From the sequence record OP795442: a stretch of 64,000 nucleotides of DNA. One strand, given 5' to 3'. Of the stretch, positions 4,500 to 62,570 are shown one piece after another. Origin of the DNA: Escherichia phage A7_1. The position numbers and the translations under genes are program-made. Numbering within the stretch: position 1 is the first letter of the stretch; the number at the start of each line of letters is the position of its first letter. The notes below the pieces were generated by a model. That model was not told where the DNA came from, made no database searches, and was given only the letters and a program-made list of their open reading frames with translations.

Positions 4500-4687
4500 T
4501 AAGCCTCCTCAGTATCGTCTTTAAAGTAATCTAACATCCAACTCTCTACAGGTTTCGCATAGTAACCTGTTCGCCCTTTCTTTTGGAACTCCATAACAAT
4601 TTCATTTGCAATACTTTTTGTGATTGCGATCCCGATTAGTGCTCCACCAGGACCCATTACTGCGTGTGAACTAAAAACATTACTCAT
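4499..4687 (-). CDS. hypothetical small protein
   Basis: Track ORF, 62 aa, start overlaps the upstream stop. Confidence 0.45.
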   Translation of the reverse strand: MSNVFSSHAVMGPGGALIGIAITKSIANEIVMEFQKKGRTGYYAKPVESWMLDYFKDDTEEA

Positions 4688-11282: not shown

Positions 11283-13937
11283 CTAATGGCACGCCCCCCA
11301 GTTCATCCCTGTGAGGTATTCTCCAGTTATCATCACTGGTGATTTCATCATCTTAGCTGCTTGTTCGACACAACGAACAACCATCTCTCCTACAGGGCAG
11401 TATGTAATAGTGAAGATACCATTTTCATCAGGATCACACTTAAACTTCCCTTCTTTCACACAATGACCATCTAAGACCATCTTCTTAGCCAAGCAAGCTT
11501 CTACAAATTTTTTCGCGTCAGCTTCGTTGTCAAAGGTCCAGGTCTTCTTGAACTTGTGTGGCACTTCAAGCTGGTATTCATCATGATAGTAAATGATACG
11601 GCGAACACCTTCATCATACCAACCTTTCTTAACCAACTGCCAGTGCAGGAGGATACCTACCAAGTCAAACAGTGCAGCACCACCATTCTGCTGATAAGCA
11701 TTAAGCAATGAGTGTTTGGAACGAGTGTAGATCTTACGTCCATCAAGACCGTAGATGAATCGCTTACCGTTAGCTTCCCAAAACTTCTCTAGTGCTTCTT
11801 TACGACCTTTCAAGCCGATGTTGCTATCCCAGAATGCGTCGATTACTGCCTGGGCCTTCTCAAGAGTGATCCCCAGCATTGATGCAATCTTCGCTGCCTG
11901 TGCCCCGTACATAATTCCGTATGTCACACCTTTACCTTCACCACGAGAAACCTTCTTCCCTGCCGCTTTGGTATACGCTTCTGCGTTTCGGGAGTGAGCA
12001 TCTCCAGATTCCATGATACGAAGATAAGCGCCACCATCGAAATCATACGCGCCCCATGCCGCGATCATACCTTCCAAGTTTGAACCGTCGATACCTACCT
12101 GATATTTACCCTCGGAGGCTCTAAACAGTTCACGCATCTCTTTACCGAGAAGAACTTTCTCATCCGGCTTAGGTACGTTTGCTACGATCGTATGCTTACG
12201 ACGACCTGTGTTAGTTATTCCACTATAACGGGCCGGAAGTTTACCGTCAACCCGTAGACGTGGATGGTTAAGCCATCCGGTATCAACCTTCTCTTCTTTC
12301 AGTGGGTCAAGAACAGATCGTCGGTTACGTAAAGACAGCCATTTAACAATCTGTTTAGCCATTTCACCATCTACTCGCTCAAGGTTAGGGCAAAGACCCT
12401 GCTGATCCTTAAGTTGTGGAGATGTTGGTAATGCACGGGCTTTCTTCCTGAAGAACTTATACATCTTCTCTTTATCTTGCCACTGCTTACCACTGATACC
12501 TAAACTTTTCAGAATCAGATCGCGATATTCAGTCTGGTCAAGATCATCAATATATTGACGAACAATGATATCGACTTCGTTATCGGGACGTTGTTTCTTA
12601 AACTGGTCCTTCGTCGCATCTTTAGTTCGCCACAATGTTGGGACCCAACCAGCATCACGAATAAGGAATTTTTTAACGTCATCCTGATTACCAATACGCA
12701 TCGGGATCATAATGTCCGGCATCTTTTGTTCTTTGATATCCATCAAAGCACGAGCCATATCTTCCGGCGGCAAAGGAACAAGCCCTTGCTGCTTAACGTT
12801 TTGTGCACGGATAAAATCACCCATTTTGGATTCATCTTCTACACCGTGTTCAACACAATACTTGATCGCGGCGGCAGTAAGAGATCCGTCAGCCTTAAAC
12901 GGCTTACTTGGTGCACCTTTAAACTCTAATGCTTCCCAATTGATATTATAACCTAACTTCTCTAACCATTTCCAACCTGTACCGGAAAGAGATCCATCAC
13001 CCTTGAAAGGCTTAGATGGGAATGTCGGTTGTGCTGATTTCGACATTTCTTTCTTCGGTAACTTAGGTTCAACCTCTAACTCAATGTCTGTCATCATCTT
13101 ATCGATACGATCACGGAGCTTGAGTGCTTTTTCTTCATCAAATGAAACACCCTGAATCTCTTGCTCAATCATCAGGTAGTCGGTCAGCATACCTCGACGC
13201 AGGGCATTCTTCCAGTTGATCATTTTAAACTTCTTCTGATCTTTGTCTGTTTCATCCTTAAACATGAAGCGTTTATCATCTGGCATGGATTCACAAGAGA
13301 TCTCTTTCATCAGAGCATCCCACACCATTTCGTTGATAATTACGTCTTCAATAATACGATCGCAATATTTCCAAAGTGGAAGGCCACGCCAATCTTCAAT
13401 CGCCACTTTCTGGTTGGCTACTCGCATACCCCAAGCTTCAAGCCCGTGAGGGCCTACAGGCTTCATTTTACCTGTGACTGGGTTCTTTACCATCTCGGGA
13501 CAACCACGAGGCAGAGGGCGATCTGGATACAATGTACGGGACATTGAAAGTGTATCGAAGATGTTTACTTGTTTACCATTAATCGTACCCATGCAACCAG
13601 GGTCTGCAAACATATCGTAAGTTGTTCCAAGCATCTTCTTAAACAACTGGAGGTCGTAGCCGAAGATGTTGTGGATAGCAATTGCTTTAGGCTCTGTGAC
13701 AAACCACTCGTTTAATTCCTCAATGGTCCGAATCTTAAAGTTTTTACCTTTAGATTGGATAAATTTAACAGCTTGATCGTAACCTTCCCGCTGGGGATCA
13801 AGAAAGATGTTCCAGTTATCTTTTTTATACTCTTTAAACAAGACGCAGTGAATCAGATCAACCTCTGTCAATAGACCATTCGCTTCCGCATCTCCAATAA
13901 ATAAGCCTTTCATTTTTTCTCCTTCTTCAAGCTCCAA
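11283..13937 (-). CDS. DNA polymerase, family A, with 3'-5' exonuclease domain
   Basis: 884 aa; N-terminal FIGDAEANGL (Exo I D-x-E); motif A DGSNLEGM; motif B R-GEGKGVTYGIMYG; motif C YHDEYQLE. Confidence 0.9.
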   Translation of the reverse strand: MELEEGEKMKGLFIGDAEANGLLTEVDLIHCVLFKEYKKDNWNIFLDPQREGYDQAVKFIQSKGKNFKIRTIEELNEWFVTEPKAIAIHNIFGYDLQLFKKMLGTTYDMFADPGCMGTINGKQVNIFDTLSMSRTLYPDRPLPRGCPEMVKNPVTGKMKPVGPHGLEAWGMRVANQKVAIEDWRGLPLWKYCDRIIEDVIINEMVWDALMKEISCESMPDDKRFMFKDETDKDQKKFKMINWKNALRRGMLTDYLMIEQEIQGVSFDEEKALKLRDRIDKMMTDIELEVEPKLPKKEMSKSAQPTFPSKPFKGDGSLSGTGWKWLEKLGYNINWEALEFKGAPSKPFKADGSLTAAAIKYCVEHGVEDESKMGDFIRAQNVKQQGLVPLPPEDMARALMDIKEQKMPDIMIPMRIGNQDDVKKFLIRDAGWVPTLWRTKDATKDQFKKQRPDNEVDIIVRQYIDDLDQTEYRDLILKSLGISGKQWQDKEKMYKFFRKKARALPTSPQLKDQQGLCPNLERVDGEMAKQIVKWLSLRNRRSVLDPLKEEKVDTGWLNHPRLRVDGKLPARYSGITNTGRRKHTIVANVPKPDEKVLLGKEMRELFRASEGKYQVGIDGSNLEGMIAAWGAYDFDGGAYLRIMESGDAHSRNAEAYTKAAGKKVSRGEGKGVTYGIMYGAQAAKIASMLGITLEKAQAVIDAFWDSNIGLKGRKEALEKFWEANGKRFIYGLDGRKIYTRSKHSLLNAYQQNGGAALFDLVGILLHWQLVKKGWYDEGVRRIIYYHDEYQLEVPHKFKKTWTFDNEADAKKFVEACLAKKMVLDGHCVKEGKFKCDPDENGIFTITYCPVGEMVVRCVEQAAKMMKSPVMITGEYLTGMNWGACH

Positions 13938-31980: not shown

Positions 31981-32440
31981 TATTTATTTGGATACCGAAA
32001 CGATTTTCGTTAGTGGAAAAGAAACCATTTTCCATGCGGCGAATCTCTTCTTTCATCACTTCCTGCATCGTTAATTTAAGGATTTCTTTGTTTAATTTTG
32101 GCTTAACTTCACGAAGCTTGTCAAGAAGTTTTTCCATTTCTTCTTTTACTTTTTCTTCCTCATTTTCTATCTCTAATTGGTCCATTGCATCTTTACAAAC
32201 ACAGCAATGACCTGTTACTCTTAAAATGTGATTTTGTATAGGTAGTGCTTTTCTACCGCAATACCCACAAAGAATAGAACCACCAGAGTTTCGAGCATCT
32301 ACTGTCAATGTAGGTTTAGCCCCTTCTGCTTGAGAATCCCAAGTCTTTTTACCCTGGTAATCATACATAAAGAATTCGTAGGATCTTTCATCAACGTGGT
32401 CTTCGAGCATATGTAAAGTTCGTGTATTGAAATGTTTCAT
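31952..32440 (-). CDS. hypothetical protein with zinc-ribbon-like Cys cluster
   Basis: 162 aa; CGYCG...CCVC; first gene of the leftward unit. Confidence 0.5.
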   Translation of the reverse strand: MKHFNTRTLHMLEDHVDERSYEFFMYDYQGKKTWDSQAEGAKPTLTVDARNSGGSILCGYCGRKALPIQNHILRVTGHCCVCKDAMDQLEIENEEEKVKEEMEKLLDKLREVKPKLNKEILKLTMQEVMKEEIRRMENGFFSTNENRFGIQINNGEDYVEED

Positions 32441-33724: not shown

Positions 33725-34954
33725 ATGCAAGCAACTTATCAACGTATGGACCAAACCATGTTCAAAAAACGTATCAGTGTTCGTGATATGGAATCACTGA
33801 TTCGCCTAGGAGCTTCCATCGGAAAGACCGTATTCTTTTTTGGTGGCGCTGGTCTTGGTAAGTCTGAAAAAGTAAAACAGATCGCTGATTCCATGTTCCC
33901 ACATCGTGTAGGTAATAACCTTTGTGATGTTCGTCTGTCGGATAAAGAGCCACAAGATATCGCAGGTATTCCGATTCCGATCTCTTATCCAGATCCGAAA
34001 ACTGGTAAAGAAGTCACTCGTACCGTATATGCAGTTCCAAACTTTTGGCCTACTGATCCTGATTGGGAAGGTATCGTGTTCTTGGATGAACTGCCAAATG
34101 CACCATTGGGCACTCAGCACTCTGCATATCAGGTTATTCTTGATCACGTTGCAGGTGAGCATAAGTTCCCGAAAGGTACTGTGTTTGTAGGTGCAGGTAA
34201 CCGTGATACTGATGGAGCAGGGACTACTTCTATGCCTGGCCCATTGGTTAACCGTATGATCATTGCAGAAGTTGATTATAATCTGGATGTGTGGATCGAA
34301 GACTATGCGATTCCGTTCCGTCTGCACCCGAACATTATTGGTTTCTTGAAGCAGTTTCCAGAGCATTTCTATACTGGTGACGTAGAAAACCGAAGTACTC
34401 CGGTTTATTCATCTCCTCGTCAATGGAAAACAGCATCTGACATTCTGTACAAGTATGATGCGGGTGAGATTAATGAATTTATCGCAGAGGTTGCTCTTGC
34501 AGGTACAGTTGGTGAAGGCCTGGAAGTACAGATCCTTGCTTATCATTTACGTGCTAAAGAACTTCCTCCGATTGAAGATATCTTTAGTGGTGCAGTTGAA
34601 GAACATAAACTTGATCGCAGTAAGAACGACCTTGTTTACGTCCTGGCACAAACTGGCCTTCGTCGCATGGAAGATGAGGTTATGGATAATGACATGACGG
34701 ATGATAAGTTCCTTGAACGTGCAGGTAACTTCCTTACGTTCATGTACAATAACTATTATGCAAACAACAAGGATACGATGATTGCTTTGATCTTGGGCGT
34801 GTTCCGTGGTCCAAACGATAAGCCATCTATCTTGACTGTTAACCCGAAACGTCAGAAAATGATTCCGCTTATGCGTAAGAGTTGCCCGACTGTTTCTGCC
34901 GCAGTTATGGAATACATGACTCGATATGGTCAACTGATTAAAGAATTCGAATAA
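33725..34954 (+). CDS. MoxR-like AAA+ ATPase
   Basis: 409 aa; Walker A GGAGLGKS, Walker B VFLDELPNA, sensor region VGAGNRD. Confidence 0.8.
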   Translation: MQATYQRMDQTMFKKRISVRDMESLIRLGASIGKTVFFFGGAGLGKSEKVKQIADSMFPHRVGNNLCDVRLSDKEPQDIAGIPIPISYPDPKTGKEVTRTVYAVPNFWPTDPDWEGIVFLDELPNAPLGTQHSAYQVILDHVAGEHKFPKGTVFVGAGNRDTDGAGTTSMPGPLVNRMIIAEVDYNLDVWIEDYAIPFRLHPNIIGFLKQFPEHFYTGDVENRSTPVYSSPRQWKTASDILYKYDAGEINEFIAEVALAGTVGEGLEVQILAYHLRAKELPPIEDIFSGAVEEHKLDRSKNDLVYVLAQTGLRRMEDEVMDNDMTDDKFLERAGNFLTFMYNNYYANNKDTMIALILGVFRGPNDKPSILTVNPKRQKMIPLMRKSCPTVSAAVMEYMTRYGQLIKEFE

Positions 34955-46061: not shown

Positions 46062-46274
46062 ATGGCTATCATTACTAAAATCAAAGTAAACAAAACACTG
46101 GTTAAGCTGGAAGAAGTGAAAGCAGGTTATAAAGTATCTTGGTGTGGCATGTATCGGATGTTCACAGATATAGACGATGCAATCAATTACTACACTAACA
46201 CGATTAAAAACTTTGTTCGTGCTGATGTGATTATTGCAGTGGAAGCACATAAAGCATCGAAAGAAAGTAAGTAA
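46062..46274 (+). CDS. hypothetical protein
   Basis: Track ORF, 70 aa. Confidence 0.5.
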   Translation: MAIITKIKVNKTLVKLEEVKAGYKVSWCGMYRMFTDIDDAINYYTNTIKNFVRADVIIAVEAHKASKESK

Positions 46275-49289: not shown

Positions 49290-49541
49290 ATGATCGAACA
49301 AATCAAAACTACGACGGCTAATGTAACGGGTACAATATCGCACTTTATTAGTGATGAATCGCGGGGCGTTCCTTATTGTGCAGTACATGTAAACAAAAAT
49401 GGCGACTACTGGTTAACGGCGTATGGATCTTATTCTTTCGGACGTAGTGCACACCAAAAGATCCTGGATAAAGTACAACCAACGGGTAAAAATATTACCG
49501 CTGAGATGTTTAATAAATCACTTGCAAAGTTAAAAGCGTAA
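49290..49541 (+). CDS. hypothetical protein
   Basis: Track ORF, 83 aa. Confidence 0.5.
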   Translation: MIEQIKTTTANVTGTISHFISDESRGVPYCAVHVNKNGDYWLTAYGSYSFGRSAHQKILDKVQPTGKNITAEMFNKSLAKLKA

Positions 49542-55875: not shown

Positions 55876-56295
55876 ATGAACATCAAATCAACTAATCCAG
55901 CATACTCTTTCGATAACGCCTTTTGTCACGGTAGCGCCGCCAAAGGTTTTGAAATTGATGGTAAACTGGTTATCGTCAATGTTGATGGGGAAGAGGTTGC
56001 AGTTTATCCAGTAGCAGACGTTAAAAGCCGTTTACAATGCCGCATGGATGTTAACGATTATCGCCTTGATCCGGTTCGTGTAGTTGCCCTGGTTCTGGAA
56101 GAGGAAATTAAAGCAATGCAGCACAGCAACAAATTTATCGGCGATGCACAGGACAACATGAAAGTAAGCCGCCACAAAGTTAATGAAGCACTGAAAGATT
56201 TTGGCTTTAAAGATCTAGTTATCAAACGTGATGAAAAATTCCGCTTTCGTAATGATCTGGCAAATCGCTACTATGAAATATATGAAGCACTTTAA
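55876..56295 (+). CDS. hypothetical protein
   Basis: Track ORF, 139 aa. Confidence 0.55.
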   Translation: MNIKSTNPAYSFDNAFCHGSAAKGFEIDGKLVIVNVDGEEVAVYPVADVKSRLQCRMDVNDYRLDPVRVVALVLEEEIKAMQHSNKFIGDAQDNMKVSRHKVNEALKDFGFKDLVIKRDEKFRFRNDLANRYYEIYEAL

Positions 56296-56640: not shown

Positions 56641-57328
56641 CCATCGGCGTGACTCCCCCAACTCTATTAATCCCTTCCCCATTTGGATCATCATATCTTA
56701 CCCTATCTAATCATCAATCCAATCACCCTTTGGAATCTCTCTCCCAAAAATCTAAACTAATCTGATAGCTTACCACAACATAACACACAAAGAAAGAACT
56801 ATTTTGCCCACAAAGAAAGGCAGTTTTAAAGAGATACCATTGCCAGAGTATGGAGGTGGCGCGACCGTAGGGAGCGACACTATAAAACGAGTATACCCCT
56901 CCTACCGCTATGCGGTCATCGGTGATAACCGATATCGTTACACGCTATCTGTTCTCTTCGTTTCCTCGTTTTATAGTGTCTATCTGTAGTAATCTTTTAT
57001 CCTTTGTCAACAGATTAATTGGCTTATAGACAATTATTTATAGTGATTTATTATGCATAGCTACTGATTATGTATGCAATAAGGATACAATAAGGATACA
57101 GTAGCGGTAGTGTAGCGACGCTGTAAATATCAACAAAGAGATGCCGTATTTGCCCACAGAATGAACAAGTAAGCAGGGCGGTACGCCCTTTTGCTAATGA
57201 GCGTAGCTCTTTTGCTAGGTAAAACTCTCTTCTCTCTTCTTTCCCAAAATAAATTTTTTCTTGCTTTTATTGCCAGAGTATGGCGGGGCGCTCAGGCTAT
57301 TGATGGCCCTGATGGAGTCGCTCCTGTA

Positions 57329-60485: not shown

Positions 60486-60953
60486 TCACTTTTTGCTGAT
60501 GATTAATTTCTGAATGTTTTCAACGGCTTGGTCGAAGGGAATCTCATATTCTTCGATCAGTGCCAGAAGTTTTGCTTTTGCTTCTTGATTGCGCTCTTCT
60601 TGCACCTCTTTAAGAAGTTCGCCATACTTATCTTTCAGCATTTGCTCAGAGATATCATATGCCTCTGCCAGAATAGCATCGATTTTGTCGTCGAGTTCTA
60701 AACATTCCGGCGTTGCAGTCTTGCCACTTGACCAGCAAGCACCCATATAGCCATCTATACCAACGATGAAGTCATTCCAGTTAGTGTAGTAGCTTACTCC
60801 CTTGGAAATATCGTAATCCTGAGCTAAGGCTTCTTTGAACATCTCATCTGCAAGCTTCTGGATCAGTTCTTTACGATCAGGAGTGCAGAAAGCAAAGAAA
60901 TAGCTGGACGTATGTTCAGGAAATTCACGACGATAGACTGTTAAGCTGTACAT
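60486..60953 (-). CDS. hypothetical protein
   Basis: Track ORF, 155 aa. Confidence 0.5.
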   Translation of the reverse strand: MYSLTVYRREFPEHTSSYFFAFCTPDRKELIQKLADEMFKEALAQDYDISKGVSYYTNWNDFIVGIDGYMGACWSSGKTATPECLELDDKIDAILAEAYDISEQMLKDKYGELLKEVQEERNQEAKAKLLALIEEYEIPFDQAVENIQKLIISKK

Positions 60954-60988: not shown

Positions 60989-61153
60989 TTAGTTTCCGGT
61001 GTACTCTGCAACCTTTTCTTGCAATTCTGTGTGAATTTTTGCCAGTTTCTGCATTTTGTCCCTGTCCCAAGGCTTCTTCTCAAAGTCAGAAACAGCATCT
61101 GCGTAAGTCTCGATCATTGCCATCAGGTCGTAGTATTTTTCTTGTGGTGTCAT
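60989..61153 (-). CDS. hypothetical protein
   Basis: Track ORF 60989..61243; internal ATG (MTPQEKYYDLMAMIE) behind AGGAGA is the likelier start. Confidence 0.45.
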   Translation of the reverse strand: MTPQEKYYDLMAMIETYADAVSDFEKKPWDRDKMQKLAKIHTELQEKVAEYTGN

Positions 61154-61324
61154 GTTAGTCTCCTGTTTAGTTGATGAACTTAATGTACAGGACAAAAAGG
61201 GAGAATGCAAGAACTTTTTAAAGCCTCTTAGAAGGCTTCTCACGAGGTTATTTAAGTAGGGTATACATTCGGGTAGGTTAGTCAGCTTAGGTCGTTACAG
61301 TGCACCTTGTGAAGCCACAGGCAA

Positions 61325-61353
61325 TAAAAAACCGCCCGAAGGCGGTTTGTGTT
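61325..61353. terminator. bidirectional terminator
   Basis: aaccgcccgaaggcggtt hairpin flanked by A-run and T-run. Confidence 0.8.
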
Positions 61354-61363
61354 TATTGAGTTG

Positions 61364-62561
61364 TTATTCCGGCAATTCCAAGGGTGTAAACTCGAAGAGT
61401 TGCATACCTATGTAACCTGGGAGCAATCCTGCACTGCTATTACCGACACCATATAGGATTCCTTTATCTACATAGTAGTGTGCAACATAGCCACCTTTTA
61501 GTGATGAATATTCTCCACCATATGGTACAGTCGCTGCAAGCTGTGTAAATACTGAATATGAAGACTGGAATTGTGCGCCTGCGCCTTGTAAACTACCCGT
61601 AGCTGCTCCTGTATAGTATACCCTTTTTTCTTCCGGGTGGAGAATACGGGCGCTAAAGTGACCAATGTACAAAGGAGGTAATGAAGGTACATTGGAAAAT
61701 ACCAACGTTGGCGCAACAACGTTTATATTACCCGAGTTGTTTACCCCGAGACTTCCTGACACACTTTGTCCTTGTGCGTAAACGGAGTAACTACCATTTG
61801 AAAGCACAATCCTAAAAAATCCAAACGTTGTCGCAATTATGTCAACTACCGTACCACCGCTAATTTGGCTTTGCCTAAGCCAAGTTGTATTGCTTGAAGT
61901 TGTTCCATTTTGTCCATTATTTGAAAGACCTGCGACATAAACTTCACCACTTTTGGTCAGAAGATAGGATGTATCGTATGTTGACCAGTCAAGATCTATT
62001 TTTTCAACATTCGTGAAGTCAGTCCTTAAGGTTAAGGTTTTTACCGTAGAGGTATCTCCTTTCCCCAAACCCCCTGAGTTGTTAGTACCAGGTTTTTACC
62101 GTAGAGGTATCTCCTTTCCCCAAACCCCCTGAGTTGTTAGTACCACACATTGCATACTGCCCATTGGTAAAGACAACAGCCAGATTACGATGCCCGATCG
62201 CCACCTGCTTAACTATAAGTCCTCTAGGTATAGGCATATCGGCAGTTACATCCGTGGGTGTCCTTATCGTAGTCCCATAACCCGTATTGAAATATTGATT
62301 AAACCCCATAAACAGCCACCTACCTGCGGTTGTCCTCATGAGAACAGCACTAGATGCAGTCCATATCTCTTCCACTTCTCTTGCCAGATAGCGCCATGTT
62401 GTAGCATTTCCCCCTGTACCGCTGAAGTATTGATCTCCTATACCATAGACGTTACCGGAGTTCATAAGCACAACAATGCCACCATTGCCAGCGGCAAACT
62501 TCTTAACGTTACCTTCCACCACTGGCAATTCGGCAGAGCCTAAGTTCATCATTTCTAACAT
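61364..62561 (-). pseudogene. tail-fibre paralogue disrupted by a 55-bp tandem duplication
   Basis: Track ORFs 62082..62561 and 61364..62068 both encode GLGKGDTSTVKT at the junction; removing one 55-bp copy joins them in frame. Confidence 0.7.
62036..62145. repeat. perfect 55-bp tandem duplication
   Basis: ggtttttaccgtagaggtatctcctttccccaaaccccctgagttgttagtacca occurs twice back to back. Confidence 0.9.
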
Positions 62562-62570
62562 AATTTTTCC

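Follow-up and report, generated by a model that had tools for sequence, protein, structure and literature searches.

A perfect 55-nt tandem repeat splitting a virion protein gene in the genome record of Escherichia phage A7-1 is very probably an untrimmed assembly overlap

The split gene and the tandem repeat

The window, by which we mean the whole analyzed stretch of 64,000 nt, is part of the genome record of the Escherichia phage A7-1, a Septuagintavirus (OP795442, 144,828 bp, 273 ORFs; PMC11370258). Three tandem paralogues, mutually 25-28% identical, lie on the minus strand at its end. The first is a split gene at 61364..62561, the second is intact and encodes 378 aa (62571..63707; PHROG 4219), and the third, an orthologue of A54_121 and W70_237 with 399 aa, runs off the window and is represented by its C-terminal part (63721..64000). 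The phage vB_EcoM-LTH01 contains a fourth paralogue.

The split gene harbors a perfect 2 x 55-nt tandem repeat at 62036-62145. String comparison showed that 62036-62090 is identical to 62091-62145, and Tandem Repeats Finder reported the repeat at 62035-62145 with a period of 55, 2.0 copies, 100% matches, no indels, and a score of 222, which confirmed the preliminary description of this DNA, according to which the unit is present twice without mismatch. The identity extends by 1 nt to the left (A at 62035 equals A at 62090) and by 0 nt to the right, and the microhomology at the junction is thus 1 nt. The junction between the copies reads ...GTTGTTAGTACC|AGGTTTTTACCG..., and the junction 35-mer CCTGAGTTGTTAGTACCAGGTTTTTACCGTAGAGG was found a single time in the window, whereas 100 dinucleotide-preserving shuffles did not contain it. 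A perfect match of 55 nt cannot have a chance origin.

On the minus strand, the ORF 62082..62561 encodes ...NNSGGLGKGDTSTVKT through the copy that is read first, and then the frame shifts at the second copy, as 55 = 3x18+1, resulting in W-Y-stop. The apparent N-terminal fragment has 159 aa, ends with GDTSTVKT-WY-stop, and begins with the native ATG that is preceded by an AAGGA ribosome-binding site. The rest of the gene runs on in another frame to 61364. This frame is open from 62089, and its first start codon is a TTG at 62068, which gives an apparent C-terminal fragment of 234 aa (61364..62068, minus strand). We searched for a convincing ribosome-binding site for this fragment and found none at a usable distance from the TTG. 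Programmed frameshifting or a translational restart at this TTG were considered and rejected, as a usable ribosome-binding site is lacking and the arrangement is found in no relative.

When one copy of the unit was deleted in silico, a single minus-strand ORF of 1143 nt (61364..62561 minus 55 nt) resulted that encodes 380 aa. The preliminary description had thus read the locus correctly, both with respect to the frame shift in the second copy and to the fusion of 62082..62561 and 61364..62068 into a protein of roughly 380 aa upon removal of one copy. It had also described the fused protein as collinear with the paralogue at 62571..63707, which holds true, although the two are only 27% identical.

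The encoded protein is predicted to be an RCC1-like propeller

The repaired protein matches Pfam PF13540 (RCC1_2) with 31.4 bits, which is above the cutoff of 22, and PHROG 4219, "regulator of chromosome condensation", with an E-value of 3e-35. PF25390 (WD40_RLD) was also hit with an E-value of 2e-25, but here the 90 bits remained below the cutoff of 150. The family profile matches the PDB structures of RPGR, HERC1/2, UVR8, and RCC1. An AF2 model, which was made of a protein (P0001) that is 99% identical to the repaired protein, had a pLDDT of 91.1 and a pTM of 0.89 and is all-beta with about 28 strands, only residues 1-13 being unstructured. The best Foldseek matches of this model were UVR8, the HERC2 RLD, the RPGR RLD, and RCC1, with E-values of 1e-22 to 1e-15 and TM scores of 0.6-0.78. 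As the confident model matches UVR8, HERC2, RPGR, and RCC1, the protein is predicted to be a seven-bladed RCC1-like beta-propeller. The apparent break follows residue 157, just beyond a GGLGKGD motif, and according to the model a truncated product would contain less than half of the propeller blades.

The phage protein thus resembles the eukaryotic RCC1-like propellers (RCC1, UVR8, the HERC2 RLD, and the RPGR RLD; PF00415/PF13540/PF25390) in profile and fold, but it shares only 15-22% sequence identity with them and is a virion component (PMC11370258). No Ran-like partner would be expected in bacteria, and guanine-nucleotide exchange or chromatin binding would have no basis in a phage virion protein. 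The names "chromosome condensation protein" or "DNA condensation protein" in phage records have probably been carried over from the eukaryotic family.

The orthologue W70_239 as well as W70_238 and W70_237 have been detected in purified W70 virions by ESI-MS/MS, with 141, 196, and 233 spectra, respectively (PMC11370258), which supports the label "virion/structural protein". The preliminary description had gone further and had called the gene a tail-fibre paralogue and the product a receptor-binding protein. This label is not supported as it stands, as we are dealing with a standalone propeller encoded about 60 kb away from the annotated tail-fibre gene, and a role in a fibre or in receptor binding would be hypothetical. 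The only nearby annotated tail-fibre gene, the orthologue of A54_248, ends at about position 880 of the window, and the RCC1-like cluster at 61.3-64 kb is surrounded by small hypothetical genes. Tail fibres have an N-terminal attachment domain and a fibrous shaft, and the model predicts a single globular propeller of 380 aa instead. Among the viral proteins with matching fold, standalone "RCC1 / DNA condensation" proteins from large myoviruses predominate, and there are a few long tail-fibre proteins of Pseudomonas podophages with the propeller as a domain. In the Pseudomonas phages Littlefix and PollyC (BFVD), the same fold forms the C-terminal domain of tail fibre or T7-tail-fibre-like proteins; unlike these fibres, the A7-1 protein is standalone, lacks an N-terminal attachment domain, and is encoded far from the tail-fibre module.

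Related phages contain a single copy of the unit

The region matches that of five Vequintavirinae phages at 88-95% identity, namely A5-4, A73, W70, vB_EcoM-LTH01, and UPEC06, all of which annotate an intact gene of 1143-1152 nt at this position, followed by further paralogues. A5-4, A73, and W70 contain exactly one copy of the 55-nt unit with 100% identity, resulting in a clean 55-nt gap relative to the window, and the more distant LTH01 and UPEC06 also have one copy. In the BLAST alignments, the match to each relative stops at 62090 and then starts over on 55-56 subject bases that have already been aligned. The intact gene for 380 aa is also encoded by two independent Logan contigs that come from other samples, and none of the 32 homologues found is truncated, their lengths being 374-388 aa. 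The junction 35-mer was not found in the contigs of three public collections (viral, metagenome, and genome).

The repaired gene is orthologous to A54_119, A73_254, and W70_239, and the repaired protein is 100% identical to these three (UZZ64359.1, WBF77700.1, and WBF77952.1). At the DNA level, it differs from A54_119, A73_254, and W70_239 by 3, 1, and 2 of the 1143 nt, respectively, and all of these differences are synonymous. Beyond the duplication, no decay was seen in the remainder of the split gene, and in the phage itself the whole gene is likely present.

The locus tags wrap at the split gene

Proteins of the window could be assigned to A7-1 locus tags by exact matches (A71_135 at 934, A71_206 at 33725, and A71_261 at 55876, followed by A71_269, A71_271, and A71_272 at 60486). 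The tags climb with the window coordinate up to A71_273 (UZZ64079.1), the last tag of the record, which is an exact match to a 54-aa minus-strand ORF at 60989..61153 and sets the lower bound of the wrap. Directly after the split gene, they restart at A71_2 (UZZ64080.1), the first deposited tag beyond the wrap and an exact match to the intact paralogue at 62571..63707. As the protein accessions are consecutive (UZZ64078 is A71_272, UZZ64079 is A71_273, and UZZ64080 is A71_2), nothing from 61154-62570 was deposited as protein, and A71_1 is missing. The fragment 62082..62561 probably corresponds to the gene call A71_1 that was never deposited.

We also searched a collection of 15 billion proteins for twelve plausible versions of the two fragments, and none of the twelve matched. 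The N-terminal fragment was absent as exact 159-, 157-, 156-, and 155-aa versions from this collection and from the index of encoding contigs, and the C-terminal fragment had no record in the collection as 241-, 234-, 147-, 132-, 113-, and 102-aa versions.

As the tags wrap within 61154-62570, and as A71_1 and the fragments are missing, the ends of the original contig must lie in this interval, which comprises about 1% of the genome and holds only the split gene including the repeat. A7-1 was therefore annotated on a contig that had both ends inside the split gene, and the record was rotated afterwards. The contig start is on the side of copy 2, since the tags rise with the window coordinate. 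Copy 2 (62091..62145) would accordingly represent the initial 55 nt of the metaSPAdes contig before rotation, as suggested by its identity and the tag order, and copy 1 (62036..62090) would represent the last 55 nt, as suggested by identity, the locus-tag wrap, and the single copy in relatives.

The repeat is as long as the largest k of the assembler

By default, metaSPAdes uses k-mers of 21, 33, and 55, and the largest k is thus 55. The repeat has exactly this length. Terminal overlaps of 55 bp have been described for SPAdes (PMC12509680), and overlapping ends of 55 bp have been trimmed in independent phage genome work (PMC8483715). The A7-1 genome was assembled de novo with metaSPAdes at default parameters, and ORFs were called by RAST (PMC11370258). 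Like the circular-contig overlaps of SPAdes and metaSPAdes, the A7-1 repeat is exact, has the length of the largest k, and lies at the original contig ends; relatives lack it, and the use of this assembler for A7-1 is on record. Unlike a terminal overlap, however, it is internal, as the record was rotated after the ends had been joined, and it is thereby disguised as a gene-disrupting tandem duplication.

The most plausible course of events would be as follows. In the de Bruijn graph, a circular or circularly permuted genome would appear as a cycle, from which the assembler would output a linear contig with the same 55 nt at its start and its end. In the case of A7-1, the contig would by chance have ended inside the gene for one of the three RCC1-like virion proteins. 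RAST annotation of the linear contig would then have fixed the locus-tag numbers, before the contig was closed and rotated in order to make the four genomes of the study collinear. If the overlap was not trimmed when the ends were joined, the 55-nt unit would be directly followed by itself, which would appear as an internal tandem repeat. The duplication is thus, with high confidence, an untrimmed 55-nt circular overlap of metaSPAdes, i.e., an artefact of assembly and curation, and we infer that the overlap was retained when the contig was rotated and that only one copy exists in the phage itself, where the split gene is very probably unbroken. In the record, this gene looks frameshifted and split, with both halves undeposited, because the contig ended inside it and the overlap was retained. 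For the same reason, A7-1 has been reported to lack an orthologue of W70_239 (PMC11370258): the contig ends and the retained overlap split precisely that gene.

The joins of the sister records

The records of A73, W70, and A5-4 were also rotated after annotation, as their tags wrap mid-record. The wraps are at record positions 86,567-86,652 in A73 (A73_1 to A73_264), 80,481-80,592 in W70 (W70_1 to W70_251), and 46,082-46,085 in A5-4 (A54_276 to A54_1). At the start of the window, the four records align collinearly, with window position 1 corresponding to 31,989-31,999 in the three sisters.

At the tag wrap of A73, an exact 55-nt direct repeat (positions 4505 and 4608 of the compared locus L007) flanks a 48-nt insert. 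The whole lesion at L007 4505-4662 corresponds to about 86,504-86,661 of OP778609.1, with window equivalents at 57,235-57,289 and 61,959-62,012. The insert matches the RCC1-like gene of A73 itself in reverse complement with 100% identity, and 6 nt of microhomology (TCTTCT) are found where it passes into the second copy. At the equivalent position, this 55-nt repeat is present only once, with no insert, in W70, A5-4, and the window. The arrangement could be explained by a contig path with its start in a short chimeric dead-end, from which it would join the cycle at a 55-mer vertex and go round until this vertex is reached again; abutting the ends would generate the observed order of repeat, 48 nt, and repeat. 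The A73 lesion is thus probably a chimeric graph tip combined with an untrimmed k=55 overlap, and the A73 record likely holds 103 spurious bases, namely the 55-nt repeat and the chimeric 48-mer.

In A5-4, a unique 1-nt deletion of one T lies within 10 nt of the tag wrap (L009 about 14092, which is about 46,092 in OP744025.1 and about 13,472 in the window). This T is present in the window, W70, and UPEC06. As a result of the deletion, the DNA polymerase gene falls into two parts, A54_276 and A54_1. In the W70 and UPEC06 annotations, a single polymerase CDS spans the site, which is also intact in the window. The loss of this T in an essential gene probably goes back to an error at the join or contig end. 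At the W70 join, no lesion was found.

Tandem Repeats Finder detected no tandem repeat at the joins of A73, W70, and A5-4; the A73 repeat is interrupted by 48 nt and was detected by BLAST and an exact-repeat search. When we searched the window and 12 related loci (about 188 kb) for exact direct repeats of at least 30 nt, the 55-nt repeats of A7-1 and A73 were the only ones found. Three of the four genomes of the study thus have join lesions, two of which have the length of the assembler's k.

The A73 insert derives from the same stretch of about 130 nt of the RCC1-like gene in which the A7-1 contig ends lie, the two being about 25 nt apart. This coincidence within 61,951-62,145 of the window could be due to chance, or it could reflect a site that is prone to odd reads, for example because it is a physical terminus or is used for packaging. 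As a further observation at the joins, W70 lacks about 6.6 kb that are present in the window (about 49.5-56.2 kb) and is 7.5 kb shorter than A7-1. The deletion boundary is inside W70_1, 100-200 nt from the W70 tag wrap (L008 about 2364-2376, record about 80,363-80,375), and corresponds to positions 49,537 / 56,175 of the window. This deletion may be real, or it may be tied to the contig join.

Alternative explanations of the duplication

The preliminary description had left three readings open, namely a very recent duplication, an assembly artefact, and a reversible switch. The repeat length that equals k, the position at the contig join, and the lesions in the sister records argue for the assembly artefact, and the single copy everywhere else argues against the switch. 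As mentioned, the error is not uniform within the study: the W70 join is clean, and A5-4 has lost 1 nt at its join without any duplication, which is a point against the assembly artefact.

It is very unlikely that a real, very recent 55-nt tandem duplication, generated by replication slippage or illegitimate recombination, inactivated one of the three RCC1-like paralogues. The loss would then have to be tolerated, either because the paralogues are redundant or because the protein is dispensable on K-12. Such an event would be in line with the two copies in the deposited sequence and with the multi-copy nature of the gene family (three paralogues here, four in LTH01), and a perfect repeat in an otherwise undecayed gene is what one would expect if it was very young. 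Moreover, a real exact duplication of length k would branch the k=55 assembly graph and could thereby have placed the contig ends at this site. However, the agreement with the assembler's k would then be a coincidence, the gene is intact in all relatives, the junction occurs in no other contig of the viral, metagenome, and genome collections, and the microhomology at the junction is only 1 nt. A real duplication that caused the contig break was for this reason rejected as the main reading: the duplication would have to be exactly k in length, and the same exact length of 55 nt is found in A73 at its own, unrelated join.

We regard it as most improbable that the two copies are real in A7-1, originated very recently, and represent a heritable but precisely revertible on/off state of a structural, possibly host-interacting protein, with the match to k being coincidental. 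The chance that gain and loss of a 55-nt copy in fact toggle this virion protein, possibly a receptor-binding one, within the population is extremely remote. Slippage or recombination can remove one copy of a perfect tandem duplication, and the frame would thereby be restored exactly; furthermore, the orthologue is a virion protein, and RCC1-like propellers are domains of some phage tail-fibre proteins (positions 435-798 of 867 in the PHROG 4219 profile). As in contingency loci, a change in repeat number would toggle the reading frame. Contingency loci, however, consist of many copies of 1-10-nt units that vary between isolates, whereas A7-1 has only two copies of a long, 55-nt unit in one single record, and copy number varied in none of the seven related sequences (A5-4, A73, W70, LTH01, UPEC06, and the two Logan contigs). 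All points against a real duplication apply here as well.

Taken as an untrimmed overlap, the duplication carries little biological weight, since the gene is most likely intact. In OP795442, a virion-protein gene is very probably disrupted by 55 spurious bases, and, together with the join lesions of A73 and A5-4, this merits correction in all three public records and in one published statement. As a rule for scanning other records, a perfect tandem or near-tandem repeat that has the length of a common assembler k (55, 77, 127, or 141) and lies at a locus-tag wrap should be presumed to be an untrimmed circularisation overlap until the reads say otherwise.

Further observations in the window

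The DNA polymerase gene of the window (11,283-13,937, minus strand) was compared with L009 11,131-14,556 and L011 1-3,252. Both the window and UPEC06 contain it as a single uninterrupted ORF. A5-4 and W70 have about 0.7 kb with a 172-aa ORF (A54_275 / W70_85) between a 116-aa C-terminal piece of the polymerase and the remaining part, and no match to A54_275 was found in the window. The interrupted polymerase is probably also present in A73 and LTH01, judging from their duplicated polymerase annotations. The 0.7-kb stretch looks like a mobile insertion of the intron or homing-endonuclease type that is variable among close relatives.

ARAGORN found no tRNA genes in the 64,000-nt window, and a tRNA gene thus plays no part in the duplication. 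As five tRNA genes per genome have been reported (PMC11370258), those of A7-1 must be located elsewhere in the genome.

Between 43,000 and 54,100 (plus strand), families of repeated intergenic cassettes (D1-D3, D5-D7) precede many small plus-strand genes. Each cassette consists of a TTGACA-like box, followed by a TAAGATGTATCACAT / GTATAAT-like box and then by a GC-rich hairpin (GGCGGCAATAGTGCCGC). The cassettes are probably a reiterated module of promoter and 5' stem-loop that belongs to a block of early genes.
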